From positions 35,603-99,602 of the forward strand of contig PDOP01000031.1 of assembly GCA_002749205.1 (NCBI GenBank): a stretch of 64,000 nt of DNA, read 5' to 3'. Shown piece after piece: positions 1,812 through 59,778 of this stretch. This DNA is from Treponema sp. (GTDB taxonomy: Bacteria; Spirochaetota; Spirochaetia; Treponematales; Treponemataceae). The notes under the pieces were generated by a model. The model searched no databases. It saw only the letters and a list, made by a program, of their open reading frames with translations, and had not been told where the DNA came from. The translations under genes were made by a program, and so were the position numbers. Numbering within the stretch: position 1 is the first letter of the stretch; each line of letters begins with the position of its first letter.

Positions 1812-1972
1812 AGGAAACCTGCCTGTTACACAAATGCTTAACCTGTGGTGGACAGGCGAAGTCTACACTTTTGCCCGATTAAACTTAAAAAGAAACAACC
1901 TTCGCCGGTAGAAGAAGCGTTGTTGATTTTGTTTTAAGAAAAGGGCAAAAGGTTATGCGAGCCTGTCGGGTT
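1812..1972 (+). repeat. structured intergenic element, family A, copy 1
   Basis: GCTTAACCTG..GACAGGC-GAAGTCTACA-CTTTTGCCC...GGGCAAAAG-GTTATGCGA-GCCTGTC-GGGTT. Confidence 0.9.
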
Positions 1973-2127
1973 ACAGAGCATTAAGTATTGAAGGAATTTA
2001 CAAATCCTTCAATACTTAATAGCGACAGAATTTAATAGCGAAAAACCTATAGTAGAACAAAATTTCATTTATATTTTGCTAATTACCCGCAAAAAAAAGC
2101 CGATTATCTAGGTAATTGGAGGGTAAT

Positions 2128-2943
2128 GTGATTAGAAGTTGGTATACGGGGGCTAGCGGAATGCTTGCTCAACAAAAAAGGCTTGATGTAATTTCAAATA
2201 ACTTGGCAAATGTGGACACCACAAGTTTTAAGCGTGATGTGGCTGTCAGTAAGAACTTTCCTGAGCTTTTATTACGCCGTGCAAATGATGACGGTGTTTT
2301 GAAAAATGCTTTTGGCTCACAAGATGTTGCGCCTATTATTGGTAAGTTGGGACTTGGTGTTGAGCTAAATGAAGTCTTCACCGAATTTGAGCAAGGCTCT
2401 CTAAAGCAAACTTCTTCGCCTTCGGATATAGCACTTGAAGGGGGCGGATTTTTCTGTGTGGAAACTCCTGCGGGCGAAAAATATACCAGAAACGGTAATT
2501 TTCTTGTCGGTGTAGAAGGGTATTTGATGACTAAAGAAGGTTACCCTGTTATGGGTGAAAACGGGCGCCTCTTCTTGCAGGATTTAGAATATACTATTAA
2601 AAAAGACGGCGAGATTTATGTAAAGCCGATTACAGATCCCGAAGCAGACGCAGTTTTTTTAGACAGGTTAAAAATAGTTGAGTTTGAAAATGACAGATTT
2701 TTGAAAAAAAACGGTGATAGTTTCTATCTCGATACACAGTTATCAGGTACGGCTATTTCTGCCGAAGGACCTTCAAGAGGCGTTGTAATTCAAGGTTTTC
2801 TTGAAACTTCAAATGTTAATGTTGTCAATGAAATGGTGCGAATGATAGAAGTAAATCGTGCCTATGAAGCAAATCAAAAAACAATTCAAGCCGGAGATAC
2901 AATGATGGCAAAGCTCTGGAATGAAGTGGCTAAGTCGAAATAA
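2128..2943 (+). CDS. flgF: flagellar basal-body rod protein FlgF/FlhO (FlgG-like paralogue)
   Basis: N-terminal ..YTGASGM..DVISNNLANVDT..FKRD and C-terminal LETSNVNVVNEMVRMIEVNRAYEAN; GTG start after GGAGGG; directly upstream of flgG. Confidence 0.8.
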   Translation: MIRSWYTGASGMLAQQKRLDVISNNLANVDTTSFKRDVAVSKNFPELLLRRANDDGVLKNAFGSQDVAPIIGKLGLGVELNEVFTEFEQGSLKQTSSPSDIALEGGGFFCVETPAGEKYTRNGNFLVGVEGYLMTKEGYPVMGENGRLFLQDLEYTIKKDGEIYVKPITDPEADAVFLDRLKIVEFENDRFLKKNGDSFYLDTQLSGTAISAEGPSRGVVIQGFLETSNVNVVNEMVRMIEVNRAYEANQKTIQAGDTMMAKLWNEVAKSK

Positions 2944-2958
2944 TTAGGGGGAAGATAA

Positions 2959-3753
2959 ATGGTTAGGAGTTTATGGACAGCGGCTACGGGTATGAATAGC
3001 CAACAAGCAAACATAGATACGGTTGCAAATAACCTCGCAAATGTGAACACAAGCGGTTTTAAAAAGCAAAGAGCCGAGTTTCAAGACTTATTGTATCAAA
3101 CGGTTGAGAGTGCCGGCACCCCTGCAACCGAAGATACAATTACACCCGTTGGTGTTCAGATGGGGCATGGTGCAAAACTTGCCGCAACTCAGCGTATTTT
3201 CGAGCAAGGCTCATTACAAAATACAGGTGTAAGCAGTGATATTGCAATTCACGGTGAAGGGTTTTTCAGGGTCTTACAATATGACGGTACTTATGCTTAT
3301 ACTCGTGACGGCTCGTTTAAGGTTGACGCTGACAGACAGCTGGTAACTTCTGACGGGCTTAGAGTGTTGCCTGAAATCATATTTCCCGAAAACTATCGTG
3401 AGGATACAATTGCCATAAGCCGAGACGGCAGGGTTACTGTCAGAGTCGGCGATGTGGACGAACCAATAGATGTAGGACAAATAGAGCTTTACCGATTTCA
3501 AAATAATGCCGGTCTTTCCGCCGAGGGTGGTAATGTTTTTAAGCAAACCCCTGCTTCGGGACAAGCTATTCCCGGTCGTCCGGGTTTTAACGGCTTTGGT
3601 AAAACCGAGCATAAATTTTTGGAAATGTCAAATGTTTCAACCGTAAACGAAATGGTAAATATGATTGTTGCACAGAGAGCTTACGAGTTTAATTCAAAAG
3701 CAATTCAAACAAGCGATAATATGCTTGGTACGGCAGTCAGTTTAAAACGATAA
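2959..3753 (+). CDS. flgG: flagellar basal-body rod protein FlgG
   Basis: MVRSLWTAATGM..NNLANVNTSGFKKQRAEFQDLLYQ; LEMSNVSTVNEMVNMIVAQRAYEFNSKAIQTSD. Confidence 0.95.
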   Translation: MVRSLWTAATGMNSQQANIDTVANNLANVNTSGFKKQRAEFQDLLYQTVESAGTPATEDTITPVGVQMGHGAKLAATQRIFEQGSLQNTGVSSDIAIHGEGFFRVLQYDGTYAYTRDGSFKVDADRQLVTSDGLRVLPEIIFPENYREDTIAISRDGRVTVRVGDVDEPIDVGQIELYRFQNNAGLSAEGGNVFKQTPASGQAIPGRPGFNGFGKTEHKFLEMSNVSTVNEMVNMIVAQRAYEFNSKAIQTSDNMLGTAVSLKR

Positions 3754-3770
3754 TAAAATAGGAGCATAGT

Positions 3771-4343
3771 GTGGGAGTAAATGCAATTTCAGGCTTTTCG
3801 CCAATTGATAAAGTAGATGCAGTTTCGGAACTCAAAAAACTGTATAAGGATACGGATAAAGAAATTGAATCAATAAAAAAAGAAGAAAAAGATTTTTTAA
3901 AAATGCTTAACGATTTGCGTCAAGCGGATCTTGCGGCAGAAATTACTTCTGCTTCATCGAAAGCAAATATGCCGGCAAAGGTAAAAAATCTTTCATCCGG
4001 AATTTCAGGCGACTACATTAGCTCCATGAAAATTAATAACCCGACTCCTGCGGATAAACAAGCGGCGGCAAAAGGCGATGCGGCTAAATCAATTATGGCG
4101 AATAATACAAAAGTTGATAAAACTTCAAAACTTTATGAAAAGTCGCTTGAGCTTGAATCGTATTTTGTAAAGATTATGCTAAATACAATGCGAAAAACAC
4201 TAACCGGAAGCAGTCTTGGAGATAACAGCTACGCATCAAAAATGTACAAAGATATGATGTACGATGAGCTGTCAAGAACAGTGACAAAAAATGCCGGTTT
4301 CGGACTTGCAGACCAAATTTATCTTCAGCTGAAAAACAGCTAA
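3771..4343 (+). CDS. flgJ: rod-binding protein, single-domain FlgJ-like
   Basis: C-terminal LELESYFVKIMLNTMRKT..MYKDMMYDELS..GFGLADQIYLQL; follows flgG; no muramidase domain. Confidence 0.7.
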   Translation: MGVNAISGFSPIDKVDAVSELKKLYKDTDKEIESIKKEEKDFLKMLNDLRQADLAAEITSASSKANMPAKVKNLSSGISGDYISSMKINNPTPADKQAAAKGDAAKSIMANNTKVDKTSKLYEKSLELESYFVKIMLNTMRKTLTGSSLGDNSYASKMYKDMMYDELSRTVTKNAGFGLADQIYLQLKNS

Positions 4344-4345
4344 AC

Positions 4346-4384
4346 GAGCCGGTTACAAAAGTCAGGTACTTTTAAAATTGCCTC
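4346..4384. repeat. family C ~40-bp palindrome
   Basis: GAGCCGGTTACAAAAG..CTTTTAAAATTGCCTC. Confidence 0.6.
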
Positions 4385-4483
4385 AAATTTATTAATTCTC
4401 AGCTGTTTTCAAAAGCATTTTTTTTTCAAATACTTTTTGTTCTAGACCTTGCTAAATTCGAATTTTTGTTGTATAGTTTGTGT

Positions 4484-5893
4484 ATGAGTATTTCAATTTA
4501 TTCTCTCGGTGCAGCCGAGGAGGTTACCGGCTCGAAACATATTCTGGATGTTGACGGTCGAAAGTATTTGATTGATTGCGGTGCATTCCAAGGCTCAAGA
4601 GCCGAAGCAGATAAAAAAAATCGTGATTTTAATGTTCCCGCTAAAGATTTGGAAGCAGTAATTCTTACGCACGGGCATTACGACCACTGCGGTTTATTGC
4701 CTTTACTGAATATACACGGCTTTGAAGGAAATATTTACGCAACACCTGCAACAAGGGATTTAGCAAATCTGATTTTAATGGATTCAGCACATATTCAAGC
4801 CCGAGACCGTGAGTTCCATGCAAAGCAGGCGGCAAGAAAAGGCGAAAAGTTTACATGGAAGCCTCTTTTTGAAGAAGGTGATGTAATAAAAACAATCGGA
4901 CAATTTATTACTGTTTCGTACAGGCGCCCCATATATATAGGTCCGGGTGTTCAGTTGGAATTTTATGATGCGGGGCATATCCTGGGCTCTTCATTTGCAA
5001 TACTTACCGTAACGGAAAGCTCAGGTCGTGAAGTAAAAATAGCCTTTACAGGCGACCTTGGGCGGGAAGAAAAAGCGATTATCAGAAATCCTGAAGTCAT
5101 TCCTCCCGTAGATTACATCATTATGGAAAGCACCTATGGAAACAGACTTCATGAAAGTCAGGATAACGCATTAAAAATGCTTGAAGAAGCCGCCAATAAA
5201 ATTCACAAAACACACGGCAAGATTATAATTCCGGCTTTTGCTGTCGAAAGAACACAAGAGTTGGTTTACCACTTTCATTGTTTAATAGACGAAAAGAGAA
5301 TTCCTGAAATTCCGATTTATGTGGATTCACCGATGGCGGTAAATGCTACCAGTATTTTCCAAGTGCATCAAGAATGCTACGACAAAGAAACACATGAGGC
5401 TTTTATAAAACATCATAAAAATCCTTTCGGCTTTAACTCTTTGAAATTCATCACAAGTGTCGCAGAATCAAAAGAGCTAAACGATATTGACGGGCCAATG
5501 ATTATAATCAGTGCTGACGGTATGTGCGAATTCGGAAGAATTACACACCACTTGGCAAATAATATTGAAAAGCATTCAACAATTATTCTTTTGGTCGGCT
5601 TTATGGCGGCAAACACGCTAGGAAGAAGACTTCAAAACGGTGACGATAATGTTCGGATTTTTAACAAAAACTTTCATGTAAATGCAGAAGTTCTTCAAAT
5701 CAACGCATTCAGTGCCCATGCAGACTATCGTGAAATGCGGGACTGGTTGGACAAAAATGATACTTCAAAATTAAAGCGAATTTTCTTGGTACACGGCGAG
5801 CCTGATGCACAAAAACATCTTATCTCTTATCTTGGTGAAAAAAATTATAAAGATGTGCAAGTGATAAAATATGACGAAACATACGAGTTGTAA
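4484..5893 (+). CDS. MBL-fold beta-CASP ribonuclease family protein
   Basis: IDCG, THGHYDHCG, AGHILGS, FTGDLG, MESTYG, FSAHAD motifs. Confidence 0.9.
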   Translation: MSISIYSLGAAEEVTGSKHILDVDGRKYLIDCGAFQGSRAEADKKNRDFNVPAKDLEAVILTHGHYDHCGLLPLLNIHGFEGNIYATPATRDLANLILMDSAHIQARDREFHAKQAARKGEKFTWKPLFEEGDVIKTIGQFITVSYRRPIYIGPGVQLEFYDAGHILGSSFAILTVTESSGREVKIAFTGDLGREEKAIIRNPEVIPPVDYIIMESTYGNRLHESQDNALKMLEEAANKIHKTHGKIIIPAFAVERTQELVYHFHCLIDEKRIPEIPIYVDSPMAVNATSIFQVHQECYDKETHEAFIKHHKNPFGFNSLKFITSVAESKELNDIDGPMIIISADGMCEFGRITHHLANNIEKHSTIILLVGFMAANTLGRRLQNGDDNVRIFNKNFHVNAEVLQINAFSAHADYREMRDWLDKNDTSKLKRIFLVHGEPDAQKHLISYLGEKNYKDVQVIKYDETYEL

Positions 5894-5913
5894 CACTTGT
5901 TTTAGAGCTAAGC

Positions 5914-5948
5914 AAAAAAAAGCGGTGTTTTCAACACCGCTTTTTTTT
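5914..5948. terminator. bidirectional intrinsic terminator
   Basis: A8-GCGGTGTT-TTC-AACACCGC-T8 between convergent genes. Confidence 0.9.
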
Positions 5949-5979
5949 AAAACTTAAAATTACGCCTTAAAACGCAAAT

Positions 5980-6687
5980 TTAAGCAATAACGCCTTGCAT
6001 TCCGATAAAGCCTAACACAATCAAAAACTGTGCCAGAAGATAGGCTAACATAATCCAAAAATGTGATTGTTTATAACCTCCGACAAAGTATTCCTCGATA
6101 ACATGTGAATCAGAAAGCATAAACAGAATACCGCCCACAGCCATTAAAATACTTGCCGTATTCGGATTTGCAATTGCAAGCAACAAGAAAAGATACGACA
6201 TTATGCCGACACTAATCATATAAACAACAGCAAAGCGTCCTAATCCCCTAAAATCATGCCTTACAATAATGAGCTTGATTGTAATAATTACTATATAAAC
6301 AATAAGCAAAATTAAAGCGGCGATAACAGGAACGGTGAAATTCATAATCAGGATAATTCCGGCCGCAATGTAAGCAATTTGAGCCAAAAGGAACATCAGA
6401 ATACCGTGAACAAAGCTGGGTCTTTCCCAGTCATAAATCAACAGAATATCACCAACCCACAGGGCAATTAAGGCGACCAATACAAAAATATTAATCAACG
6501 CAATAGTGTCTGAATACATGAATGTCCAAACAGCATACATTAAAATAAGCAAAGGCATCAACATAAACTTTGTAATGTCGGAAAGACCCAAGAGCTGCTT
6601 TGAACAATGAACAAGATGTATAATAGCAACAACAACAAAAGGAATCAGCGCAAGCCAACACCAAAAATTTCCAATTTGCGGATACAT
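5980..6687 (-). CDS. YhhN/lysoplasmalogenase family membrane protein
   Basis: TKFMLMP, WVGDILL, FLLAQIAY, GGILFMLSDS, YLLAQFLIV; GAGGAGG SD before ATG 6687. Confidence 0.8.
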   Translation of the reverse strand: MYPQIGNFWCWLALIPFVVVAIIHLVHCSKQLLGLSDITKFMLMPLLILMYAVWTFMYSDTIALINIFVLVALIALWVGDILLIYDWERPSFVHGILMFLLAQIAYIAAGIILIMNFTVPVIAALILLIVYIVIITIKLIIVRHDFRGLGRFAVVYMISVGIMSYLFLLLAIANPNTASILMAVGGILFMLSDSHVIEEYFVGGYKQSHFWIMLAYLLAQFLIVLGFIGMQGVIA

Positions 6688-6768
6688 AAAAAACCTCCTC
6701 AAGTTTTTTCTAATCTATTTTACACCCTAATAGACTTTTTTTCAAGTATTACTCTCTTAAAAAAAGAG

Positions 6769-7470: not shown

Positions 7471-7685
7471 AAATCACTCCCAATAAAATTCAAGCAAACA
7501 AATGCCCGTTACAGGATACAACCCTTTTAATAATTTTGTCAAGTAAAAAAATTTTTTTTAAAGGGGGAAGTATCCCCCTCGCTTGCAAAAAATTGCCTTT
7601 TTTCTTTTGTTAAATTATATCGAGTCTTCCTCAAGTCAGCCTCGATTACTTAAAAACATCAACAAGGCAATTGTTTTTCCGCTAC

Positions 7686-7757
7686 CCCCTCGACAGGCGG
7701 CACTGCATCTGGACAGGCTCGATAACCGCTTGTCGAAGCACGGGAACCATCCCTCGG
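7686..7757 (+). repeat. REP-like nested palindrome, family B (copy 2)
   Basis: CCCTCGACAGGCGGCACTGCATCTGGACAGGCTCGATAACCGCTTGTC matches 1715-1763. Confidence 0.8.
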
Positions 7758-7971
7758 CTTTTTTTCAACTTCCTGTCAGAGGGTAATAATCATCCATCCT
7801 GTATAATTATTACCCTGCCAAGTTTTGGCTTTTGCCAAAACTTGGTAAAATTAATTTTCACGAAACAAAAGTGTTTCGATTTGATATAATAGAAAAGTCT
7901 ACATCCTGTCCACACAAGAAGCTCAACATAAAACTTAAACGATACATAAGCGTGGAAGCATACGGTTAAGC

Positions 7972-8132
7972 AGAAAACCGGCAAGCCGGTCAATTAGTTT
8001 AACCTGATTTTAACCGGCGAAGTCTACACTTTTGCCCGATTAAACTTAAACAAAAACAACCTTCGCCGGCAGAAGAAGCGTTGTTGATTTTATCAGCAAA
8101 GGGCAAAAGGTTATGCGAGCCGGTGGGGTTGG
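7972..8132 (+). repeat. family A element, copy 2
   Basis: AGAAAACCGG..GTTTAACCTGATTT..ACCGGC-GAAGTCTACA-CTTTTGCCC...GGGCAAAAG-GTTATGCGA-GCCGGT-GGGGTTGG. Confidence 0.9.
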
Positions 8133-8246
8133 AGGCTGTGAAATGTTTTAAGATAAAAATTTTATTAAACCGTTTTTAAAACAACATTTCACAGCACCAT
8201 ATTATTTTATTTTGCTTTATTTTATTTTGCTTTACTTGATTTCATT

Positions 8247-9902: not shown

Positions 9903-9994
9903 AAACCGCTATATATCAAATTTAAGTAAAACTTTCAAGTGGTTTTAATCATAAAAATTGGCTTATTTTGAAAGAAGATGGCGATTTTGCTTTC

Positions 9995-10040
9995 AAGCAA
10001 AGGGCAAAAGATTTAAGGTGCGAGCGGGTTGGCGTTTAGC
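9995..10040 (+). repeat. family A element, copy 3 (3' half only)
   Basis: GGGCAAAAGATTTAAGGTGCGAGCGGGTTGGCGT; matches the 3' end of copy 4 (CAAAAG..GGCGT identical). Confidence 0.8.
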
Positions 10041-12287: not shown

Positions 12288-12612
12288 AGAATACCGGCGT
12301 GTAAAAGCCCGAGAAAAAATACTGAGCCGCTTGCAAAAGTCGGTTACTTTAGCAAGCACCTTAAAAAGAAGCTCATTTCATTGCACTTTTTGATATATTT
12401 TGGAAGAAATTGCAAAACTCGTCTGAGTTTTGCAATTTCCTATACTTTGTAATTTTTCTCGGGCTCGCATTTCGTTTAACCTTATTTTGCGAGTGCCGTT
12501 ATCCTTTTGTTTGATTGTTTATATAAGTAAAAGCGGTTCACAATTGTGAAACGCTGATTATTATTTTTCAGAAAAAAACAAAAGATTTAAGGTGCGAGCG
12601 GGTTGGCGTCAG
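12288..12612 (+). repeat. family A element, copy 4 (interrupted by a family C doublet)
   Basis: AGAATACCGG..[insert]..GTTTAACCTTATTTT..GTTATC-CTTTTGTTT...AAACAAAAG-ATTTAA..GGGTTGGCGTC. Confidence 0.85.
12324..12442. mobile_element. MITE/REPIN-like family C doublet (~120 bp)
   Basis: GAGCCGCTTGCAAAAGTC...TTTTGCAATTTCCT flanked by ATACT/ATACT; closely similar to 31231-31350. Confidence 0.7.
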
Positions 12613-12631
12613 CTAAAATTTTTTAAAAGTT

Positions 12632-15640: not shown

Positions 15641-15815
15641 ATCGTTTCCTTTAATTTTTTTTTATTTTAACATTTTATAAAGAAAACAACAAGGCTTATG
15701 AACCTGATTATTTATTTTTTATAAAAATGTTTAGTTTATTTATTTTTTTAATACTACATTTTTAAAACCATATTACATCTCACCCTGTACTGTAAAAAAT
15801 CAAAAACATTTTTCT

Positions 15816-15978
15816 CAACCCGCGACCACCGCATAACCTTTTGTTCTTTAATTTAATTTTTAATCAGTGTTTTACGCTATCGCTCCAACCACTTTTTCTT
15901 TTTAATTTAATCGAACAAAAGTGTAGACTGTGGTCGCCAAATCATATTAATCGTTCTGTATAATATGTTAGGTTTTCT
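15816..15978 (-). repeat. family A element, copy 5
   Basis: minus strand: AGAAAACC..TGATTTG-GCGACCAC-AGTCTACA-CTTTTGTTC...GAACAAAAG-GTTATGCG-GTGGTCGC-GGGTTG. Confidence 0.85.
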
Positions 15979-21400: not shown

Positions 21401-21606
21401 AGAAAACCGGACTGTACTAGAGGCTATTGCAAAACTCGTATGACTTTTGCAATAGCCTCTACTACATAACACTTAACCTGATTTGGCGACCGCAGTCTAC
21501 ACTTTTGCTCGATTAAATTAAAAAGAAAAGTCGGTTGAAGCGACAGCGTAAAACGACGATTAAAAAATAAAGAAAAGAGCAAAAGGTTATGCAAGGGAGC
21601 GGGTTG
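21401..21606 (+). repeat. family A element, copy 6 (with a family C palindrome in the leader)
   Basis: AGAAAACCGG..ACTTAACCTGATTTGGCGACCGC-AGTCTACA-CTTTTGCTC...GAGCAAAAG-GTTATGCAA..GGGTTG. Confidence 0.88.
21420..21459. mobile_element. family C 40-bp palindrome with flanking direct repeat
   Basis: TACTA-GAGGCTATTGCAAAA..TTTTGCAATAGCCTC-TACTA. Confidence 0.7.
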
Positions 21607-21671
21607 AAAAATGTCTGCTCTGATTTTAGTTTTGAACTTAAATCAGAGCAGACATTAAAAATAAATTTAGT

Positions 21672-31087: not shown

Positions 31088-31404
31088 AGAAAACCCAAAA
31101 TACGACATGAGAAAAATAAAATTGTAATTTTTCTCATGGTCATATCGTTTAACATGATTTTGAAGACCGCCGTTATCCTTTTTGCCGATTAAAATAAAAA
31201 GAATAGACCTTCGCCGGCAGAAGAAGCGTCGAGCCGATTGCAAAAGTCGGTTACTTTAGCAAGTTGCTTAAAAATAAGCTCATTTCATTGCGCTTTTTGG
31301 TATATTTTAAGAAGAAATTACAAAACTCGTCCGGCTTTTGCAATTTCCTCCGTCTATTAAAAAAATCATTAAAGGCAAAAAGATTTAAGGCGGTCGAGGG
31401 TTGG
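31088..31404 (+). repeat. family A element, copy 7 (interrupted by a family C doublet)
   Basis: AGAAAACC..GTTTAACATGATTT..GACCGCC-GTTATC-CTTTTTGCC...GGCAAAAAG-ATTTAA-GGCGGTC-GAGGGTTGG. Confidence 0.85.
31231..31350. mobile_element. MITE/REPIN-like family C doublet (120 bp)
   Basis: terminal inverted repeats GAGCCGATTGCAAAAGTCGG / CCGGCTTTTGCAATTTCCTC, flanked by CGTC/CGTC. Confidence 0.75.
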
Positions 31405-31478
31405 AAGCTAAAAGTATTGGAGCGACTTTTTTTAACTAAATTAAATATTAAATCTCCAATACTTTTAAGCGACAATAT

Positions 31479-33747: not shown

Positions 33748-33875
33748 CCCTCGATGAAACTTTTTCATCGAGGGTCGGCGTATCTCGGGCTACGCTTTCG
33801 CTTCGACTAAAATCACGACATAAATTATTGTCGTGATTTTATTTTGTGCCGAAAATTAATATTTTCGGCACACCC
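33748..33875. repeat. cluster of three REP-like hairpins
   Basis: CCCTCGATGAAA/TTTCATCGAGGG; AAAATCACGACA/TGTCGTGATTTT; GTGCCGAAAAT/ATTTTCGGCAC. Confidence 0.75.
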
Positions 33876-33891
33876 CTCAATGTGCCTAACA

Positions 33892-34285
33892 CATGGGGTT
33901 TACGGAAACGTCCTGTTTCCGTAAACCCCGACGAGTTTTGGACTTTCGTCCAAAACATCGCTGTTTTTTTTTAACGCAACATCCGTGTTGCGTTTTTAGT
34001 TTCATGGGTTTCATGCAAACGTCCTGTTTCCGTAAACCCCGACGAGTTTTGGACTTCCGTCCAAAACATCGCTGTTTTTTTAACGCAACATCCGTGTTGC
34101 GTTTTTAGTTTCATGGGTTTCATGCAAACGTCCTGTTTCCGTAAATCCCGACGAGTTTTGGACTTTCGTCCAAAACATCGCTGTTTTTTTTAACGCAACA
34201 TCCGTGTTGCGTTTTTAGTTTCATGGGTTTCATGCAAACGTCCTGTTTCCGTAAACCCCGACGAGTTTTGGACTTTCGTCCAAAA
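33892..34285. repeat. tandem array of ~110-bp three-hairpin units (3.6 copies, no unique spacers)
   Basis: units start at 33892, 34003, 34112, 34222; lengths differ through a poly-T tract. Confidence 0.95.
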
Positions 34286-34349
34286 GATAACTATATTTAT
34301 ATTGACTTTTTTAAATATAAATGATATAACTTTCACAGAGAGGTAATAC

Positions 34350-43458: not shown

Positions 43459-43655
43459 AGAATACCGGCCTGAATGAGAAAAATCACAAAAGTGATTTTT
43501 CTCAAACAATTTGCTTAACCTGATTTGGAGCGGCGAAGTCTATACTTCCGACTTCAAATATAATAAAGAAATGGAAGCTGACGGTAGGAAGATTCCGTTC
43601 ATTTTTGAAAGTAGAAGTCGGAAGATTATGCAAGCCGCTCGGGTTGGCGTTAAGC
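43459..43655 (+). repeat. family A element, copy 8 (full length)
   Basis: AGAATACCGG-hairpin-GCTTAACCTGATTTG-GAGCGGC-GAAGTCTATA-CTTCCGACTTC...GAAGTCGGAAG-ATTATGCAA-GCCGCTC-GGGTTGGC-GTTAAGC. Confidence 0.9.
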
Positions 43656-45109: not shown

Positions 45110-45209
45110 TACTACTCCTTAAAAAAAGCACCTAATAATTATAACATACTTTTTTAAAAAAATATACTAAAATTTCAAAAATAAACAAAATTTTTGTCGC
45201 TATTCGCTC

Positions 45210-45392
45210 CCAACCCTCGCCTACCTTGTATCTTTTGGGCTTTTCTTTTTTTTATAAAAGTCGTTTTCCCTCCGGTCAACCGACTTTTCCGACAAACTAA
45301 ATCGCCCAAAAGGATACCGGTAGTCTCAAAATCAGGCTAAGTGTATAAGAAAAATCAAAAATTGATTTTTCTCCAATACCCTCCGGTATTCT
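45210..45392 (-). repeat. family A element, copy 9 (variant subfamily)
   Basis: minus strand: AGAATACCGG..ACTTAGCCTGATTT..CTACC-GGTATC-CTTTTGGGC...GCCCAAAAG-ATACAA-GGTAG..GGGTTGG. Confidence 0.85.
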
Positions 45393-47543: not shown

Positions 47544-48332
47544 CTATAACGCTTCAATTTCTTTTTGAGATAGCCCTGTTGCCTGCTCAATTTTCGCAAT
47601 GTCCACACCCAATAATTTGAAATTTCTCGCAACTTCAATTTTACCTTCCTTGCGACCTTCCTGTATGCCTTTTTGCCTTCCCTCATACAAAACATCCATT
47701 TCAAAGCCGGACATAAGCCTGTATTCTTGGCGAGCGCCTTCATTTTCCTTTATTATTGTTATCATATTTGCTATCCTCCCTGTAAATTCGGTAGTTGCTT
47801 CTCCGGTTTTAATGTATTCCAAAAAACCTCTTAGCTCCTTATTTTCAGTTTGACTAAACGCTGCTGCATTTACTATAATCTTACTTAATCCGTCTTTAAG
47901 CTCTATCGTATTATCCTCGCTACAACGAGTCTTAAACGAATACACAGGCAAACCTGCCTTTAAATAATCAAATTTGCAGATAAAGATTATATATGAGTCA
48001 ACAAGTTCACTATAATGACAACCTTTATCCAAAGAGCTTAAATCAATTGCAGACTGGTAATACCTCATACGCTTGGCAAGATCATTTTTATCGGTTGTTT
48101 GCATCTCTATATCATAAACATTTCCGCTTTCATCTTTTGCCAATATATCAAGGCGAATACCTTTGGCATAACTTGCATGCTCTACGTGTCTTTGAAAATC
48201 AATTTCGGTTATTCTGTCAACTTTATCCGATAACAGTATATTTAAAAGTGTAAGGCAAATATCTTTATTCTGCATAACATGATAAAACATAAAATCATCA
48301 GTTATTGTCAAATCATCAAAACGCTTAAGCAT
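47544..48332 (-). CDS. Rpn family recombination-promoting nuclease / PD-(D/E)XK putative transposase
   Basis: TDDFMF, IRLDI, DIEMQ, KRMRYY, IIFIC, C-terminal EGRQKGIQEGRKEG..IEQATGLS. Confidence 0.88.
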   Translation of the reverse strand: MLKRFDDLTITDDFMFYHVMQNKDICLTLLNILLSDKVDRITEIDFQRHVEHASYAKGIRLDILAKDESGNVYDIEMQTTDKNDLAKRMRYYQSAIDLSSLDKGCHYSELVDSYIIFICKFDYLKAGLPVYSFKTRCSEDNTIELKDGLSKIIVNAAAFSQTENKELRGFLEYIKTGEATTEFTGRIANMITIIKENEGARQEYRLMSGFEMDVLYEGRQKGIQEGRKEGKIEVARNFKLLGVDIAKIEQATGLSQKEIEAL

Positions 48333-48438: not shown

Positions 48439-48632
48439 AGAATACCTGCAAGAATTGAGAACTTATCAGACTTTCTGTCTGATAAGTTCTCATCATTCAC
48501 TCAACCTGATGTGGCGACCGAAGTCTATCCTTTCGTCCGATTATTAAATCGGAAAAGTCGGCTTCTTTTGAAAGAAGACGACGATTTAATTAAACAGTAA
48601 AGGACGGAAGATTATGCGAGGGAGCGGGTTGG
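48439..48632 (+). repeat. family A element, copy 10
   Basis: AGAATACCTG-hairpin-ACTCAACCTGATGTG..GAAGTCTATC-CTTTCGTCC...GGACGGAAG-ATTATGCGA..GGGTTGG. Confidence 0.88.
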
Positions 48633-48674
48633 ATGCAAAAGCGAAGGCAAGCCTTTGGCTTACCAAGCGTTGCA

Positions 48675-52055: not shown

Positions 52056-52257
52056 TTGCTTGACGCCAACCCGACGGGCTCGCATAACCTTTTGCTTTTT
52101 TCTTATATAAATTCAAACGGTGCTTTTCCTGCCGTCAAAGACCTTTACTGATATTTATAATCAAGCAAAAGTGTAGACTTCGCCCGTCTAAATCAGATTA
52201 AGCGAATTGTTTGAGAAAAATCACTTTTGTGATTTTTCTCATTCTCTCCGGTATTCT
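52056..52257 (-). repeat. family A element, copy 11
   Basis: minus strand: AGAATACCGG-hairpin-GCTTAATCTGATTTA-GACGGGC-GAAGTCTACA-CTTTTGCTT...AAGCAAAAG-GTTATGCGA-GCCCGTC-GGGTTGGCGTCAAGC. Confidence 0.9.
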
Positions 52258-52272
52258 TTTTTAAAACCCCGC

Positions 52273-53894: not shown

Positions 53895-53923
53895 TTGACA
53901 ATATTAATTAAAAGCCGTATTAT
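53895..53923 (+). promoter_or_regulatory. sigma70 promoter of the MCP gene
   Basis: TTGACA-17-TATTAT, AGGAG SD downstream. Confidence 0.7.
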
Positions 53924-53960
53924 AAATAAAGGTTAAAACTTAACCTCCAGGAGACTTAAA

Positions 53961-55793
53961 ATGATGGAAAATAAAATGCCAAAAGCCCCAAAAGCTATTC
54001 TGATACTTGATTTATTGACTAATTTGGGTTGGATTTTCAGTGATATAATTACTAACTTAGTTGTTGGAAGGTCTGACAATACATTAATGATTGTTACATC
54101 CAAAACAGTTATAATCGTATTGATACTGTCAATAATTGTGCCGGTCATAAAATGGAAAACATTAATTCCTGCAATCATGGATTGGGAAGAAAATGAAGCG
54201 AAGGCACAAAAAAGCATTTCTCTTTACATAAAACTTATGGCAATTTTACCGATAAGTATTGCAGTATTAGCACCTGTTTTTGCAAGCATGGAAACAGGAC
54301 TTATAGATAAAAGAGCGGCATTCATTTCCTTTTATTTATTAACATTTGCAAATATTCTGTTTTTGGCAAGTGCCTTTGCGTCAACCTGCTCAAGACTACT
54401 TGAAAAGTGGGCATCGTTTATCCCTGTTAACCAAAAGTTCAATAAGTTTTCAATGACCAGACGAGTTTTCTTGATGGTATTTTTCAATGTCATTTCATCA
54501 ATGTTTTTTATTATGGTGCCTTTTATACGAACCCCGGAAGCAGCCGGAAGCACACCATTTTTACTGAAGATAGCGTTTCTTATAGCTTTAGCTTTGGTAT
54601 ATTCTTCATATAATATTCTTTCTCCAATAAGTGCAACTCAAAAGCGCGTAAACAAACTAAAAGCCAATATATTTGAATTATCCAAAGGAAACTACGGTCA
54701 ACGCAATATAGAAATAGATTCCAGAGACGATATGGCTTTACTTTTTTCGAATTATAATTATTTTTTGGATTTTTCTCGTAACTTCTTAGGCACACTAATA
54801 GATGCAGTAAATGTATCAAACACGGCTTCAGAAAAACTTGGTGTAAATATGCAAAGCACCTCAAAAGCTATTTCATTTATTACAAACGGTATTGAAACAG
54901 TTGACGAGCATATACAAAATCAATCGGCCGGTGTTTTGGAAACACAAAGTACTCTGGATCAAATTGCACGAAATCTTAATAACCTGAATTCCAATATTGA
55001 AAACCAGGCAACATCGGTAACAGAATCCGTTTCCACAATAGAAGAAATGAGTGCAAGTATTCAATCCGTTGATAAGGCTGTAAACGAAAACATGCGTGCA
55101 ATAAACGAACTGCAAAAAGCAAGCGAAGAAGGAAATAAAGCATTGCAGAATTCTACGGAAGTTGTAAAAACAGTTACCGAAAACTCAGATGGTCTTTTGG
55201 AAGCCTCAAGTGTAATTCAAAACATAGCAAGTCAGACAAACCTCTTGGCAATGAATGCCGCAATTGAAGCGGCCCACGCAGGCGATGCCGGAAAAGGCTT
55301 TGCAGTCGTTGCAGACGAAATCAGAAAGCTGGCAGAAGAATCAAGCGTACAGGGAAAAAATATCACCAATGTTTTGAAACAATTAAAATCACAAATTGAA
55401 ACTCTGTCAACTTCATCTATGAGTGTCGAAAAACAGTTTTCAACAATTGTCAAATTACTGGGGCTTGTACAAAACCGCAGCACCGAAATTATGAATGCAA
55501 TGACAGAGCAAAGTTCAGGCAGTGCTCAAGTTTTAAATGCTGTTAGAGAAATAAACGAAATAACCGAGCAAGTAAAACTGGGCTCAAGCGAAATGGTCAA
55601 CGGTAATAAAGAAATCGCAAAAGAAAATCAAAAGCTGGTTGAAAGTGCAGAAGAAATTACAACAAATATGAAAAACATAAATTTAAGTGCCGAAAATATA
55701 AAAACTTCAATTGCGATGGTATTGGCGGCCGGAGAAGAAGAAATGGAAGCCATAAAAAAAGTTTCAAACCAGTTGGCAAAATTAACAGTGTAA
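53961..55793 (+). CDS. methyl-accepting chemotaxis protein (multi-TM N-terminus)
   Basis: six hydrophobic segments; [35 protein letters not shown]. Confidence 0.93.
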
Positions 55794-55842
55794 TTATGAT
55801 AGCTTAAAAAAGTCGTCTGACCTTTGCACAACAGCTAATTTT

Positions 55843-57861
55843 TTACATTAAGCTGACAGGGTCTATGTCAATTTCGATATAGACCCCCGTCATTACCGAA
55901 TAATTTTTTACAAAATACATCACCGGCTTTTGCATATCCTGCATCTTTTCCGAGCGCAACAGTATCTGCATTCTGTAATTACCCGAAATCATCGCAAGCA
56001 TACATTCTGACGGACCCATAATTTCAACCGTTTCGGGAATCAAGTTTTCAAGAATTTCTTTTGCACCGTATGCGGCAAGCTCCGCTTTTTTTAATTGTTT
56101 ACTTCTAAAAACCAACCGCAAAAGACGCGAAAAAGGCGGAAAAAAAAGAGCTTGCCTTTGTGCCAATTCATATTCATAAAAGTCTTCTATCCTTCCGTCC
56201 TTTGCAAAAACTATTGCAGGATGCTCCGGTCTGAGCGTTTGAATAATTACTTCACCGTCAGGAATATACCGCCCTGCCCTGCCTGCCACTTGTGTTATCA
56301 ACGAAAAAGTTCTTTCCGCCGCACGAAAATCAGGCATCTGCAGACCTGTATCCGCCAAAGCAATGCCAACCAACTTTACATTTGGAAAGTTAAGTCCCTT
56401 TGCAACCATCTGTGTACCAAGCAGTATATCCGTTTTTTGTGTTTTAAAATCCTCAATTGCCTGTTTCAGTTTTTCTGCCTTACCTGACAGGGCATCTGTA
56501 TCAATTCTTTCTGTAACACAATCAGGAAAACCTTTTATAATTTCATTTTCGATAAATTCCGTACCAAACCCGGCATAACCGGTTTCAAGCGATCCGCATT
56601 CAGGACAAGTTTCTGGAGGGCTACATTGCCACCCGCAATAATGACATTTCATCACGCCGGAAGACTTATGCCAAGTAAGCGGAACTGAACAATTTTTGCA
56701 AAGCATTTCAAAACCGCAACTATGGCACTTAAAAAAATGAGAAAACCCGCGCCTGTTCAAAAAAACAATAGACTGTTTTCCTTCGCTTTTAATCTTCCGC
56801 ATAGAATCAACCAAAAAACGACTGAGGGAATTTTTTTCACCGCACATATTAACGGTAGTAATTTTTGGCATATTCCCACCGGCAAGCCTTTTAGTCAATT
56901 TTAACTTTTTAATCTTACCTATTTGCATCAAATGCCAAGCTTCAACCGATGGTGTAGCAGAGCCCATCACAACAGGAAAGGCAAGTTTTTTTGAAAGCAT
57001 CATTGCAACCTGTCTTGCATGATAGCGTGGTGATGAGCCTGATTTATATGAGCCGTCATGCTCTTCATCTATTATAATTAAACCTAAATTTTTGGCGGGA
57101 GCAAAAACAGCACTGCGCGGACCTATAATAATTCTTGCATCGCCATTTTTTATTCTCATCCATTCTGAAAATTTTTTACCGGTAGACAACCCTGAATGCA
57201 ACACCGCCGCCAAATCACCGAAACGGCTTACAACCGACTCTGTAACCTGATGCGTCAAAGCAATTTCAGGCACCAAATATATAACAGCCTTGTTTTGTTT
57301 TAAAACTTCATCTGCAATCTGCAAAAAAACTTCTGTTTTACCCGAGCCGGTAACCCCGTAAAGATAAAAACTATCAGCCTTATCAAGATTTACAGTAATT
57401 GTTTTTACAGCGTATTCCTGCTCATCTGATAATATTATGTCCTTATTATTAAAGTGTGGCAAACTTGCTGTTAAACTTTCAAAAGCAGTCATTCTACGTC
57501 CTGAAGGCAACATAGCCGAAAGGCATTCGCCAACAGAGCAAATATAAAACCGTGAAAGCATAAAACTCAGTTCAATTTGCAGTTGCCCAAAAATAGGCTC
57601 AACATCTACAATTCGTTTCAATGGCTTAATTTTATCAGGCGATACCGGGAACTCACTCGGTAATTCATCAAACTCTCGAATAACAAAACCGATTGCCTCC
57701 CTGTTACCTAAGTTAGCCACAACCCTACGACCAACCAATGACGGGGCAGTAATATCCTTTCCGTTTTCAAGTTCCAGTCTATAAGTAAACTCGGCAAACA
57801 CAGGCACATTAAAAACAACTTCCACCCACTTTGCATTTTTCATTAAATTTGAGTATGCCAT
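55843..57861 (-). CDS. priA: primosomal protein N' (replication restart helicase)
   Basis: GVTGSGKTE, DEEHD, FLNRRGF, Cys-rich zinc motifs, GTQMVAKGLNFP, QVAGRAGR. Confidence 0.97.
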   Translation of the reverse strand: MAYSNLMKNAKWVEVVFNVPVFAEFTYRLELENGKDITAPSLVGRRVVANLGNREAIGFVIREFDELPSEFPVSPDKIKPLKRIVDVEPIFGQLQIELSFMLSRFYICSVGECLSAMLPSGRRMTAFESLTASLPHFNNKDIILSDEQEYAVKTITVNLDKADSFYLYGVTGSGKTEVFLQIADEVLKQNKAVIYLVPEIALTHQVTESVVSRFGDLAAVLHSGLSTGKKFSEWMRIKNGDARIIIGPRSAVFAPAKNLGLIIIDEEHDGSYKSGSSPRYHARQVAMMLSKKLAFPVVMGSATPSVEAWHLMQIGKIKKLKLTKRLAGGNMPKITTVNMCGEKNSLSRFLVDSMRKIKSEGKQSIVFLNRRGFSHFFKCHSCGFEMLCKNCSVPLTWHKSSGVMKCHYCGWQCSPPETCPECGSLETGYAGFGTEFIENEIIKGFPDCVTERIDTDALSGKAEKLKQAIEDFKTQKTDILLGTQMVAKGLNFPNVKLVGIALADTGLQMPDFRAAERTFSLITQVAGRAGRYIPDGEVIIQTLRPEHPAIVFAKDGRIEDFYEYELAQRQALFFPPFSRLLRLVFRSKQLKKAELAAYGAKEILENLIPETVEIMGPSECMLAMISGNYRMQILLRSEKMQDMQKPVMYFVKNYSVMTGVYIEIDIDPVSLM

Positions 57862-57903
57862 AATTTTTTAAACCATATAAGCTATCTTTTAACGCAAAAT
57901 TTT

Positions 57904-58803
57904 TTATTGTTTAATTTTATTATAAAGCTCGTCCAAATCATCTGCAGAAAAATAAGAAATCTCCACAGTACCTTTGTCTGCATTGCCCTTTATAATAACC
58001 TTTGTGCCGAGAGCATCTATAAACTGCTGTTGCAAATCTTGCAACTCGGGCAACATCTGCTTAAACTGTACCTTCCCCGCAAACGAAGCATTAGAATTAT
58101 TTTTTTTCGAATTAAGCTCAGAAGCAATCCTTTCGCTACTTCTGACTGATAAACCCTCATTGATTATTTTTTCAAACAAAGTTTTTCGTTTTATATCTGT
58201 ATTTACTGAAAGAATCGCCCTCGCATGACCTGATGAAATCCGACTTTCCTCAATAGCTTTTTGGGCGTATTCAGGAAGCTGTAAAAGCCTTAAAAAATTC
58301 GCAATAGCAGACCTACTTTTACCCACTCGTTGCGACAAGTCTTCTTGACTTAAATCATACATATTAATCAAATTTTGATATGCCTTGGCTTCTTCAATCG
58401 GATTTAAATCTTCACGCTGAATATTCTCAATTAAAGCAACCTCAAGATTTTTCTCTTCGGCAATATCTGAAATCAAAACAGGAATTTCAGAAAGCCCTGC
58501 CAAAATCGAAGCTCTGGTACGCCTTTCACCTGCAACAATAAAGAGTTCCCCTTTCTCCCCCCTGCTTACAACAACAGGCTGAATAATGCCGTGCTCTTTT
58601 ATGGATACAGAAAGCTCTTGAAGCGACTCGTCCGAAAACACTTGCCTCGGTTGATGCGGATTCGGCTTTAATTGATTTGGATCAATTAAAATCAAATTCT
58701 CATTTGAAGATTCCACCTTACTTGAATTATCTTTACCGGGAGAGTCGTCTTGAGAAAGCAAAGCATCAAGCCCCCTGCCCAGCTTTTGTTTACTTTTCGC
58801 CAC
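57904..58803 (-). CDS. parB: chromosome partitioning protein ParB
   Basis: LGRGLDALL, PNPHQPR, AGERR.RA, ENIQREDLNPIEEA, HTH GKSRSAIAN. Confidence 0.95.
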   Translation of the reverse strand: MAKSKQKLGRGLDALLSQDDSPGKDNSSKVESSNENLILIDPNQLKPNPHQPRQVFSDESLQELSVSIKEHGIIQPVVVSRGEKGELFIVAGERRTRASILAGLSEIPVLISDIAEEKNLEVALIENIQREDLNPIEEAKAYQNLINMYDLSQEDLSQRVGKSRSAIANFLRLLQLPEYAQKAIEESRISSGHARAILSVNTDIKRKTLFEKIINEGLSVRSSERIASELNSKKNNSNASFAGKVQFKQMLPELQDLQQQFIDALGTKVIIKGNADKGTVEISYFSADDLDELYNKIKQ

Positions 58804-59551
58804 GCTTTAAAATCTCCTCTGCTAATTTATTATAACTCTTTGCACCGATTGAAGAAGGCTCATATTTACAAATCGGCAAACCATGAGAAGGCGCTTCCGA
58901 AAGCCTGACATTTCTCGGAATAATTGTTTTCAAAACCCTGTCTTCAAAATAAGTAGAAACTTGCTGAACAACTTCTTGAGCAAGCCGTGTCCTCGAATCA
59001 TACATCGTAAAAAAGATTCCGCCAATCTCCAGTTTTTTATTCAAACCGGACTGCACCCGTTTAACTGTCTTTAAAAGTAAAGTCAATCCCTCCAACGCAA
59101 AATACTCACATTGAAGGGGAACCAAAACCTCGTCAGCTGCAACCAAACCGTTCAAAGTCAAAATTCCAAGTGATGGCGGACAGTCAATCAATACATAATC
59201 GTAAACATCTTTTACCTGCAACAAAGCATTTTCCAAAAAATGTTCCCTCTTATCAACATCAACCAACTCAATAGTCGCCCCCGACAAATTTATATTCGCC
59301 GGAAGCACAGAAAGCTTTTCAATAACCGTTTTTTGTATCGCCTCGCTCGTCTTACAAATCCCCGAAATAGCATCATAAACAGTCAAACCATTCTTATCAG
59401 CACCAACCCCTGACGACATATTACCTTGAGGGTCAAAATCAACCAACAAAGTCCTCTTACCGGAAAGCGCAAAATACGCCCCTATATTCAAAGCCGAAGT
59501 CGTTTTCCCGACTCCCCCCTTCTGATTTACAAACACAAGAATCTTAGACAT
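58790..59551 (-). CDS. parA: ParA/Soj ATPase
   Basis: NQKGGVGKTT, DFDPQGN, IDCPPSLG, IPRNVRLSEAPSHG. Confidence 0.95.
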   Translation of the reverse strand: MSKILVFVNQKGGVGKTTSALNIGAYFALSGKRTLLVDFDPQGNMSSGVGADKNGLTVYDAISGICKTSEAIQKTVIEKLSVLPANINLSGATIELVDVDKREHFLENALLQVKDVYDYVLIDCPPSLGILTLNGLVAADEVLVPLQCEYFALEGLTLLLKTVKRVQSGLNKKLEIGGIFFTMYDSRTRLAQEVVQQVSTYFEDRVLKTIIPRNVRLSEAPSHGLPICKYEPSSIGAKSYNKLAEEILKRGEK

Positions 59552-59606
59552 TTTTTAAGTATACATTATTTTCAAAAAAATTAAAAGAGGTTCAAAGAGT
59601 ATATTT

Positions 59607-59778
59607 TTGCTGACGCCAACCCGACGGGCTCGCATAACCTTTTACTTTTTTCTTACATAAATTAAAACGGTGCTTTTCCTGCCGTCAAAGACCTTTACTG
59701 ATATTTATAATCAAGCAAAAGTGTAGACTTCGCCCGTCCAAATCACGATAACCGTACTGCATAAAACGCCGGTTTCTC
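59607..59778 (-). repeat. family A element, copy 12 (near-identical to copy 11)
   Basis: about 130 bp match to 52059-52190 with only a few substitutions. Confidence 0.9.

Follow-up and report, generated by a model that had tools for sequence, protein, structure and literature searches.

Most of the larger intergenic gaps in a 64,000-nt stretch of contig PDOP01000031.1 from Treponema sp. (assembly GCA_002749205.1; this whole stretch is called the window below) are occupied by a copy, about 170–200 nt long, of one element, which we call family A. What kind of element fills these gaps, and what preserves it? An earlier description made from the letters of the window by themselves (the sequence-only reading) had listed 12 copies as modular folded non-coding elements, proposed that their structure is selected, and suggested that they might be mobile. 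We find that family A is a discrete, non-coding dispersed element with some 100 or more diverged copies, that its fold is selected, with pairing under continuing selection, and that it is confined to one lineage and absent from Rfam. As a tentative interpretation, to which we assign a probability of roughly 0.45, we propose a non-autonomous element that is still duplicating and whose single-strand fold, most likely one of RNA, is under selection.

A selected, strand-specific fold

We built a covariance model, R1 (140 positions, 30 base pairs), from 11 cores of the window and used it to search the window with filters off. MAFFT followed by RNAalifold on the same 11 cores had recovered only one helix, P3, because stem 1 was misaligned, and this alignment was replaced by a hand-specified structure and alignment to the covariance model. 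R1 returned 10 full copies at 106–151 bits (E 4e-24 to 3e-35), the copy at 31088 at 43.7 bits, split by a nested insert of 126 nt, and the 3′ half at 9995 at 24 bits. All 12 copies of the sequence-only reading were confirmed by these scores and by their leader starts, with AGAAWACC at 1812, 7972, 12288, 15978(−), 21401, 31088, 43459, 45392(−), 48439, 52257(−) and 59778(−); eight of the 12 lie on the plus strand and four on the minus strand. A fragment at 7583–7674(−), scoring 30 bits and new to this analysis, raises the window total to 13. The sole other match better than E 0.001 in 64 kb was the reverse strand of the 12288 copy (12503–12584, 26.3 bits). The loop motif GAAGTCTAY occurs six times in the window compared to 0.51 expected, a count reached by none of 100 shuffles.

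Each unit consists, in order, of a leader, an optional A/U-rich hairpin, a core and, in about half of the copies, a tail that forms a GC-GNNA-GC mini-hairpin. The core is 136–146 nt long and its sense strand folds as one long irregular hairpin, composed of P1 (AAYCU/GGGUU, rich in G-U), a UGAUUUGG bulge, P2, an internal loop, P3, an A-rich junction, P5, a G.A pair and an apex. In the closing helix, P0/P1, ..GCU-U-AAYCU is opposed to GGGUU-GGC; RYYYAAC and GGGTTGG, which had been described as unpaired motifs, are therefore misassigned, as AAYCT pairs with GGGTT to make P1. The 5′ bulge after P1 has six bases, GAUUUG. P2 comprises 6–9 bp and is free in sequence, and P3 comprises 9–11 bp and begins CUUUU; after it come CGAUUA and the A-rich junction, which contains a variable helix. 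P5 comprises 3–4 bp with a G.A (or C-G) pair above it. The apex is modular, from a 9-nt loop up to a 25-nt sub-hairpin, and is frequently GC-GNNA-GC. The internal loop is purine-rich and conserved and is probably a run of non-canonical pairs. Rather than the invariant core first described, it occurs as two subtypes, type I (GAAGTCTAYA/RTTATGCRA) in eight copies of the window and type II (CGKTATCC/GATWYAAGG) in four (9995, 12288, 31088 and 45210). Every stem 1 and stem 2 pairing listed earlier is present in the sequence, and stem 1 of the 12288, 21401 and 48439 copies includes a tandem A.G/G.A mismatch.

The exemplar, a type I copy of the long form at 43459–43655 on the plus strand (131 bits), displays each part. 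Its leader, AGAATACCGGCCTG, occupies 43459–43472, as defined by the information profile of 63 leaders, and is followed at 43475–43504 by the optional 5′ hairpin TGAGAAAAATCAC-AAAA-GTGATTTTTCTCA, a type of insert found in about 12 of 85 copies. The 5′ strand of P1, AACCT at 43517–43521, has GGGTT at 43641–43645 as its partner, supported by pair counts (AU/GU, CG/UG, UG) and minimum-free-energy folds, and the conserved, unpaired bulge GATTTG (J1/2) comes next at 43522–43527. GAGCGGC at 43528–43534 is the 5′ strand of P2 and pairs with GCCGCTC at 43634–43640. The internal loop is formed by GAAGTCTATA at 43535–43544, in which the ninth base, Y, pairs with the R that follows the 3′ strand of P3 (columns 51–189: UA 61, CG 16), and by ATTATGCAA at 43625–43633 on its 3′ side. 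Between these lie P3 (CTTCCGACTTC/GAAGTCGGAAG), surrounding the A-rich junction, P5 and an apex found to be variable in our apex survey (43545–43624). The 3′ strand of P1 (GGGTTGG) and the tail mini-hairpin GC-GTTAA-GC complete the copy at 43641–43655.

Across the sampled copies, the information profile gives the leader consensus CAGAAWACCGGNGTG, preceded at 8–12 nt by a weak CGKGRW box. The distance from leader start to core is 21–28 nt in 51 of 65 recognisable leaders and, through the inserted A/U-rich hairpin, 48–68 nt in 12 of the 85 copies; about 20 of 85 have an intact core and no recognisable leader. We found no consistent support for a hairpin within the leader. Of 85 copies, 47 have a GC-N4-5-GC mini-hairpin in the 30 nt that follow GGGTT; the same was true of 6 of 82 control stretches. 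In place of the mini-hairpin, a larger hairpin lies 3′ of the core in some copies, and a few of these have a T-run after it.

Covariation statistics were taken from an alignment of 84 copies fitted to R1. Standard pairs filled 85.8% of pair cells, compared to 67.8% in shuffles, and the covariation score was 0.482, compared to 0.187 for shuffles (0 of 500 reached the observed score) and 0.075–0.133 when the 3′ partners were slid by 1–3 columns. P3 was 98.4% paired, with eight of nine pairs compensatory, and compensatory changes were found at seven of seven pairs in P2 and three of three in P5. As an independent check, structure-blind mutual information over all column pairs ranked pairs of P2, P3 and P5 at the top; it added a pair set off from P3 by a one-base bulge (UA 61, CG 16) and a G.A/C-G/U-A position above P5. 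The claim that structure is selected thus holds against both controls and is recovered by a method that does not assume the fold.

The copies have a mean pairwise identity of 56% and a median nearest-neighbor identity of 73%. Among copies at least 80% alike, differences amounted to about 4% at stem bases compared to 15% at unpaired columns, and 4 of 12 changed pairs were double compensatory, far above the expectation for independent hits. In the 65–80% identity band, double changes that preserve pairing affected 21.6% of pairs, compared to 8.3% for single changes that break it.

The closing helix identifies the strand that folds. P0/P1 contained 189 G-U cells compared to 24 A-C cells, and variation in P1 was almost wholly by transitions compatible with wobble pairing (A or G opposite U, C or U opposite G); this excess and this pattern indicate that the strand as given is the folding strand. 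The antisense strand retains P2, P3 and P5 (z-score of −6.2 compared to −6.1 for the sense strand) and loses P1.

Distribution of family A and comparison with known repeats

Scans of public collections used a strict type I pattern. Among 185,579 species-representative genomes the only match, in an archaeal metagenome-assembled genome (MAG), was due to chance, and IMG/VR had none. Metagenomes yielded 47 loci (sampled loci carry L numbers below), of which 44 were genuine, and all 44 came from one metagenome assembly, PDWI01 (GCA_002754915.1); the JGI matches L027, L040 and L048 were dismissed as chance. R1, the kind of covariance model that the sequence-only reading had proposed for this genome and other spirochaetes, found 84 copies in the 44 PDWI01 loci (~418 kb), and these loci do not overlap the window. 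The same search returned nothing in the ~113 kb sampled elsewhere. It detected no family A copy in 88 kb of sequence taken from T. denticola, from a relative with 51% identity and from a Treponema MAG. R1 likewise found none in a further 25.5 kb of loci; of this, 19.6 kb belongs to other treponemes of the same assembly and its siblings, and the rest is a Logan contig from the source organism, 5.9 kb long, whose end lies inside the 59609 copy. The total is at least 97 copies in ~0.48 Mb of sampled sequence (window plus PDWI01 loci), so that the high copy number suggested earlier is plausible, and the sample probably holds a minority of all copies. In the window the density is about one copy per 5 kb, or roughly 3–4% of the DNA. 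The PDWI01 loci carry a non-redundant tRNA set, which fits one genome or a few close ones.

The genes of the window are spirochaete housekeeping genes, among them those for flagellar rod proteins, Borrelia_P83, a TP_0584-type protein, the S13-S11-RpoA-L17 cluster, PriA, ParB and SbcCD. The host FolC has only ~50% identity with the proteins closest to it, those of T. putidum and T. denticola among them, and the host therefore represents a deep treponeme lineage that is uncultured. By exact-protein look-up it was found in a single run, SRR6011893. Two Logan contigs of that run, L002 and L055, terminate within the copies at 43459 and 59609, indicating that the repeats break short-read assemblies; L002, for which identity was checked, is 100% identical to the window and represents an independent assembly of the same organism.

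No family A copy was matched by Rfam 15 when the whole window was searched at the gathering threshold and at E ≤ 1, and searches with single copies at E ≤ 10 gave only inconsistent matches of 11–22 bits, far below threshold. The view that this is not a named family is thus supported at gathering and at permissive thresholds alike. Rfam ribozyme models did not match the loops of family A. By-eye readings of these loops as a K-turn, as hammerhead-like (CUGAUUU compared to CUGAUGA), as hairpin-ribozyme-like (AGAAGUC) or as like the 11-nt tetraloop receptor (UAUG) were rejected as misfits with the consensus positions.

The nearest counterparts in behavior are the ERIC, BOX and Correia repeats considered below and, in treponemes, TD-1 and TD-2 (RF03155, RF03162), with 28 and 36 instances in T. 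denticola, which are intergenic, covarying and of unknown function (Weinberg et al. 2007, PMC1950547); TD-2 was described as restricted to T. denticola and as not being in a 5′-regulatory configuration (PMC1950547). Like them, family A is multicopy, intergenic and covarying, belongs to one treponeme lineage, and has modular stems of variable length. It shows no kinship with them in sequence or structure, however: the TD models (clan CL00124) never match a family A copy, and TD-2 consists of three separate hairpins, whereas family A is one irregular hairpin of ~140 nt plus a leader.

Other dispersed repeats offer further comparisons. ERIC/IRU, BOX and Correia (NEMIS) elements, which fold as RNA, are 100–200 nt long, dispersed, intergenic and present in both orientations; for ERIC, compensatory changes are reported to preserve the RNA structure of the copies, and ERIC, BOX and Correia elements can alter the stability or processing of neighboring mRNAs. 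They are built as near-perfect palindromes or carry clear terminal inverted repeats (TIRs), Correia has a TA duplication, and their copies are usually >80% alike, whereas family A has no clear TIR or target-site duplication (TSD), a mean identity of 56%, conserved asymmetric internal loops and a closing helix that depends on G-U pairs. With REP/BIME and REPIN-RAYT systems family A shares high copy number, intergenic location, strand-specific hairpins, frequent head-to-head pairs and the lack of a TSD. REPs are 20–40 nt long with a GTAG head, however, whereas family A is 170–200 nt long with five helices; REPIN partners are near-identical, whereas inverted partners in family A are 48–53% identical; and no RAYT was seen in the ~0.48-Mb sample.

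Palindrome-associated transposable elements (PATEs) that carry the omega-RNA scaffold of TnpB are non-coding, ~150–300 nt long, make no TSD and have subterminal hairpins; the scaffold is ~130–150 nt long and ends at the 3′ boundary of the element, and its fold is kept by selection on the element. Family A resembles IS200/IS605 PATEs in being non-coding, in its length and subterminal hairpins, in a fold preserved by selection, and in lacking a TSD. It differs in that its end hairpins are unlike each other, with GAGAAAAAUCAC.. or UUAAGC/GCUUAA at the 5′ end and GC-GNNA-GC at the 3′ end, and in that its 3′ flank is often a shared tail and not a unique guide. No tnpA or tnpB was found among the multicopy open reading frames (ORFs) of the sample or the window genes, which represent an incomplete genome, and no IS605-orfB or HEARO model of Rfam matched family A. 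Integron attC sites are similar in their variable stems, conserved unpaired bases, single-strand recognition and a 5′ box like RYYYAAC. We rejected this assignment: RYYYAAC is present in 32 of 85 copies, GGGTTRRRY in 8 and both in 4, the copies of the window have mixed orientation and large housekeeping genes as flanks, and the window has no integrase. A MITE (miniature inverted-repeat transposable element) of the TIR type was likewise rejected, with no TSD and no parent insertion sequence with matching ends in ~0.48 Mb.

Family A thus lacks defining features of Rfam families, TD-1 and TD-2, the ERIC, BOX and Correia repeats, attC sites, REP/REPIN elements, TIR-type MITEs and PATEs, and falls outside all of them. 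It has those of a structured dispersed intergenic repeat, being multicopy, intergenic, in both orientations, covarying in a single-strand fold and limited to one lineage. We conclude that it is an undescribed lineage-specific member of this kind, which includes ERIC, BOX, TD and lacto-2, and that its fold is unusually rich and well supported.

Mobility, orientation and competing readings

Several copies have boundaries that suggest recent duplication. Copies in L034 and L038, on different contigs, share 196 nt at 96% identity and diverge right after the mini-hairpin, and three unlinked copies (L006:4108, L049:11585 and L036:5396) have in common exactly the stretch from −25 to about +10 relative to the core, i.e. 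from leader to tail. In all, 10 of 85 copies have a relative that is at least 90% identical. Many close pairs are alike in the core only and differ in their leaders, which implies that recombination between copies shuffles modules. In the window, the copies at 52058–52257(−) (type I, long form; 151.3 bits; sense fold −64 kcal/mol, z-score −6.1) and 59609–59778(−) (type I; 138.7 bits) make such a mosaic, being 96% identical from core position +10 on and different in the leader and the 5′ strand of P1. Seven adjacent inverted pairs were found, one tail-to-tail (L004 2538+/2745−) and six head-to-head with leaders back to back and 50–100 nt apart (L039 7295–7625, L011 183–539, L020 1843–2181, L019 406–776, L009 462–826 and L016 6971–7314); identity between partners was 48–53%, compared to a background of 56%.

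The sequence-only reading had pointed to RAYT/TnpA(Y1), TnpB or integrase genes as possible partners, and no multicopy gene of the Y1, RAYT, TnpB or integrase-like kind was found among the 372 ORFs sampled. An eight-member protein family beside the top-scoring copies was considered as a partner enzyme and proved to consist of MCP chemoreceptors. A gene for an Rpn-family recombination-promoting nuclease/putative transposase (47544–48332(−); TIGR01784 ‘T_den_put_tspse’, 188.6 bits; Pfam PDDEXK_2) starts 107 nt from the leader of the copy at 48439–48642(+) (type I, long form; 109.1 bits) and faces it. The other homologue in the lineage (L039:13131) has no copy within 5.5 kb, homologues in other treponemes likewise have none nearby, and an association between Rpn and family A is not supported.

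No family A copy lies within any ORF of at least 150 amino acids. Relative to the strand of the element, the downstream neighbor was co-oriented in 46 cases and opposed in 32, and upstream, 36 neighbors were co-oriented and 38 opposed. Of the copies that lie between tandem genes, 19 were sense and 14 antisense. Of 69 copies with both neighbors known, 55 were co-oriented with at least one. There was no bias relative to local GC skew (48 compared to 37), and a replication-strand bias was accordingly rejected. Neighboring genes are functionally unrelated. A riboswitch or other cis-regulator in the 5′ untranslated region (UTR) was also considered; placement is not consistently upstream and co-oriented, and the neighbors have no coherent function. 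Independence of orientation together with unrelated neighbors rules out a riboswitch or gene-specific leader, in agreement with the earlier view, resting on orientation that we find to be random, that these are not gene-specific riboswitches or terminators. The orientation data and the lack of a fixed promoter or terminator also argue against any function that requires the sense strand in a neighbor’s mRNA.

On our preferred reading, a trans-acting mechanism that leaves no TSD behind would multiply the unit whole, from leader to tail, copies would swap segments by recombination, and selection would retain the fold rather than the sequence, with the conserved unpaired motifs serving as a recognition surface for a putative protein. 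The folded molecule would most likely be RNA from the sense strand, which we favor because of the conserved G-U pairs, the G.A pairs and GNRA-like loops on stems of variable length, and selection over the whole core; such an RNA would be expected to behave like the ERIC, BOX, Correia and TD-type structured intergenic repeats and unlike a gene-specific regulator. The young copies at unlinked loci, sharply bounded, lend partial support to the mobile part of the earlier proposal; no TSD, clear TIR, filled/empty pair or partner enzyme was found.

A number of observations weigh against this reading. The longest word shared by the two flanks averaged 5.38 nt, compared to 5.26 ± 0.12 for mismatched flanks, and reveals no TSD. 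Similarity between the ends is weak, at 6–8 nt (AAWACCGG compared to the reverse complement of CGGGTTG, ~6 of 8 bases). No pair of filled and empty sites was found in an exact-protein strain comparison, which returned only SRR6011893, and the 372 ORFs (~0.48 Mb) contain no partner gene or multicopy transposase, their multicopy families being ABC ATPases and MCPs only. Because no filled/empty pair and no partner gene were found, the argument for mobility comes down to the sharply bounded young copies, and gene conversion or small duplications could yield the same copies. Fourteen of the 69 copies with both neighbors known are antisense to both, where a sense RNA would need its own promoter, and we detected no conserved sigma-70-type promoter upstream of the copies and no consistent terminator downstream. 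The main stems form in the antisense strand as well (z-score −6.2), GC-GNNA-GC mini-hairpins are stable in DNA too, and G-T wobbles also form there. Finally, the loci need not all come from a single genome and may represent a few close ones.

The main rival reads the fold as single-stranded DNA, and family A would then be a non-autonomous DNA transposon mobilised in trans, recognised by an HUH/Y1 transposase as in IS200/IS605, PATE or REP-RAYT systems, by a rolling-circle enzyme, or by a tyrosine recombinase as in attC. We regard this as unlikely, although it would account for strand-specific pairing with G-T wobbles, the missing TSD, the sharp bounds of young copies, hairpins that lie ~15 nt in from the 5′ end together with a mini-hairpin immediately within the 3′ end, orientation unrelated to transcription, and head-to-head pairs reminiscent of BIME and REPIN; mini-hairpins of the d(GCGNNAGC) type are, moreover, very stable in DNA. 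It is opposed by the lack of any Y1, RAYT, TnpB or integrase-like multicopy gene among the 372 sample ORFs, the dissimilarity of the 5′ and 3′ hairpins, the low identity (48–53%) of head-to-head partners, the presence of both attC boxes in just 4 of 85 copies, and the lack of an orientation bias with GC skew. Selection, furthermore, spans the whole 140-nt core and the modular apex, whereas known single-stranded-DNA transposases read subterminal hairpins only. Genes for multicopy trans-acting small RNAs, each copy its own transcription unit and acting, for instance, on an RNA-binding protein as decoy or cofactor, come next and are less probable again. RNA-like anatomy (conserved G-U pairs, G.A pairs, GNRA-like loops, stems of variable length) and independence of neighbors in orientation would be expected of them, and they are favored by a hairpin and T-run 3′ of several copies (e.g. 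L017:3935, L009:3139 and L031:3537) and by three copies co-oriented downstream of tRNA genes, one of which abuts the 3′ end of tRNA-Pro. They would have to do without a conserved promoter, the weak CGKGRW box being the only candidate, without a terminator in most copies and, in ~20 of 85, without a leader, and a single trans function served by hundreds of diverged genes would have no precedent.

We give still lower odds to a new class of functional RNA whose whole fold serves its own propagation, whether SINE-like through an RNA intermediate, as a guide or cofactor of a protein-less transposon in the manner of omega or bridge RNAs, employed by a nuclease or recombinase from a gene located elsewhere, or as a self-processing RNA; this would explain selection on the whole core in copies of both orientations and the lack of TIR and TSD. 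The analysis gave no evidence for the catalytic or replicating RNA that the sequence-only reading had suggested. Also ranked after the main rival, and in our judgment improbable, is a cis-acting module of mRNA UTRs that would provide 3′-end protection, processing sites or insulation, as shown for REP, ERIC and Correia. Copies do fit tightly in short spacers, beginning 10–40 nt past the upstream stop codon and ending 6–100 nt from a convergent stop codon, both strands fold stably, and co-orientation with at least one neighbor (55 of 69) is common. However, copies antisense to both neighbors are not depleted (14 antisense compared to 19 sense in tandem contexts), and a simple protective hairpin would leave the conserved unpaired motifs and the G-U-specific P1 unexplained. 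At the bottom of the scale stands an inert repeat, the remnants of an extinct element in neutral decay, with which the lack of a partner gene and of visible insertion polymorphism and the tolerance of nested insertions by two copies would agree. Pairing is nevertheless kept at 86–98% despite 56% identity, double compensatory changes are in excess even between close copies, and 96%-identical copies occur at unlinked sites; the covariation and the compensatory changes among close copies effectively exclude neutral decay.

If our preferred reading of a duplicating, fold-selected element holds, family A would rank among the best-supported undescribed structured nucleic-acid families available from a single genome, given ~100 members that have diverged while keeping near-perfect compensatory pairing, together with a modular apex and non-canonical loops that are conserved, and would be a well-defined addition to the small, unexplained group of lineage-specific multicopy structured repeats that contains TD-1/TD-2, lacto-2 and ERIC. 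A self-propagating functional RNA, if true, would be of much higher interest than a structured repeat alone. At about one copy per 5 kb the element must shape the intergenic architecture of its host and the breaks in its assemblies, and R1 is available for searches of spirochaete genomes and metagenomes. An uncultured host seen in only one sample set limits the practical value at present.

Remaining copies and other repeats of the window

The first copy of the window, of type I, extends over 1812–2027(+) (132.5 bits), with the leader AGGAAACC at 1812, the core at 1834–1976 and a tail of the form AGAGC-[long hairpin]-AGCGAC. Two type I copies are of the short form, at 7972–8134(+), where the leader lies 23 nt ahead of the core (136.7 bits), and at 15813–15978(−) (119 bits). 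The type I copy at 21401–21609(+) (130.2 bits) has a TTGCAAAACTCG motif in its optional 5′ hairpin. Among the type II copies, that at 9944–10040(+) is a 3′ half only, with the tail GGCGTTTAGC (24 bits; repeat families D3, D8 and D11), and that at 45199–45392(−) is a variant (GGTATCC/GATACAAGG) of the long form (106.5 bits). The remaining two are interrupted: the copy at 12288–12613(+) (core 12472–12608; 106.5 bits) in its optional 5′ hairpin, by a nested repeat of ~125 nt at 12324–12450, and the copy at 31088–31407(+) in its apex, by a nested repeat of 126 nt at 31231–31356, across which it scores 43.7 bits.

These inserts belong to a second dispersed repeat of ~125 nt (GAGCCGMTTGCAAAAGTCGGTTACTTTAGCAAG ... 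TTGCAAAACTCGTCYGRSTTTTGCAA), nested at differing positions in the two copies, which also abuts other family A copies in L003, L004 and L034 and, in its behavior, resembles a small mobile element that carries a TD-like hairpin. The fragment at 7583–7674(−) contains the P3-apex domain only (model positions 32–124; 30.2 bits, E 3.8e-5) and is embedded in a different repeat, which was also found in L003, L014, L029 and L044. A third repeat family is represented at 7550–7770 in the window and at L014 9263–9444, L029 845–1039, L044 3728–3873, L018 5002–5138 and L020 8913–9184. Its P3-apex domain is homologous to that of family A, in a different frame, and is joined to a GC-rich CTCGACAAGCGG...CGAGCCTGTCGAGGG module; this module is also present at 1700–1790 of the window and directly upstream of some family A leaders. 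The repeat families thus appear to share modules.

Some copies have distinctive neighbors. At L006 704–913, a leaderless core starts one base after the 3′ end of tRNA-Pro(GGG), on the same strand, and two further copies are co-oriented downstream of tRNA genes, for tRNA-Cys in L014 and tRNA-Tyr in L041. Paralogues of a dCache-HAMP-MCP chemoreceptor are encoded at 53961–55793(+) of the window and in seven loci (e.g. L021 1028–3145, L017 4131–6341 and L029 7598–9703). Three of these MCP genes are directly followed, on the same strand, by near-identical family A copies, and gene and copy were probably duplicated together as a segment.

TD-2 itself, the only Rfam family matched in the window, is present there above its gathering score at 7778–7878(−) and 33891–33992(−) (56.8 and 51 bits), with weaker matches at 34002–34101(−) and 34111–34211(−). 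It also belongs to a tandem array of four ~110-nt units at 33854–34301 (repeat family D2). Protein identity between the host and T. denticola is only ~50%, so that TD-2 is wider in range than described. Positions 1–250 of the window carry a 39-nt tandem repeat of at least five units (repeat family D1), which reads as coding at the window edge.

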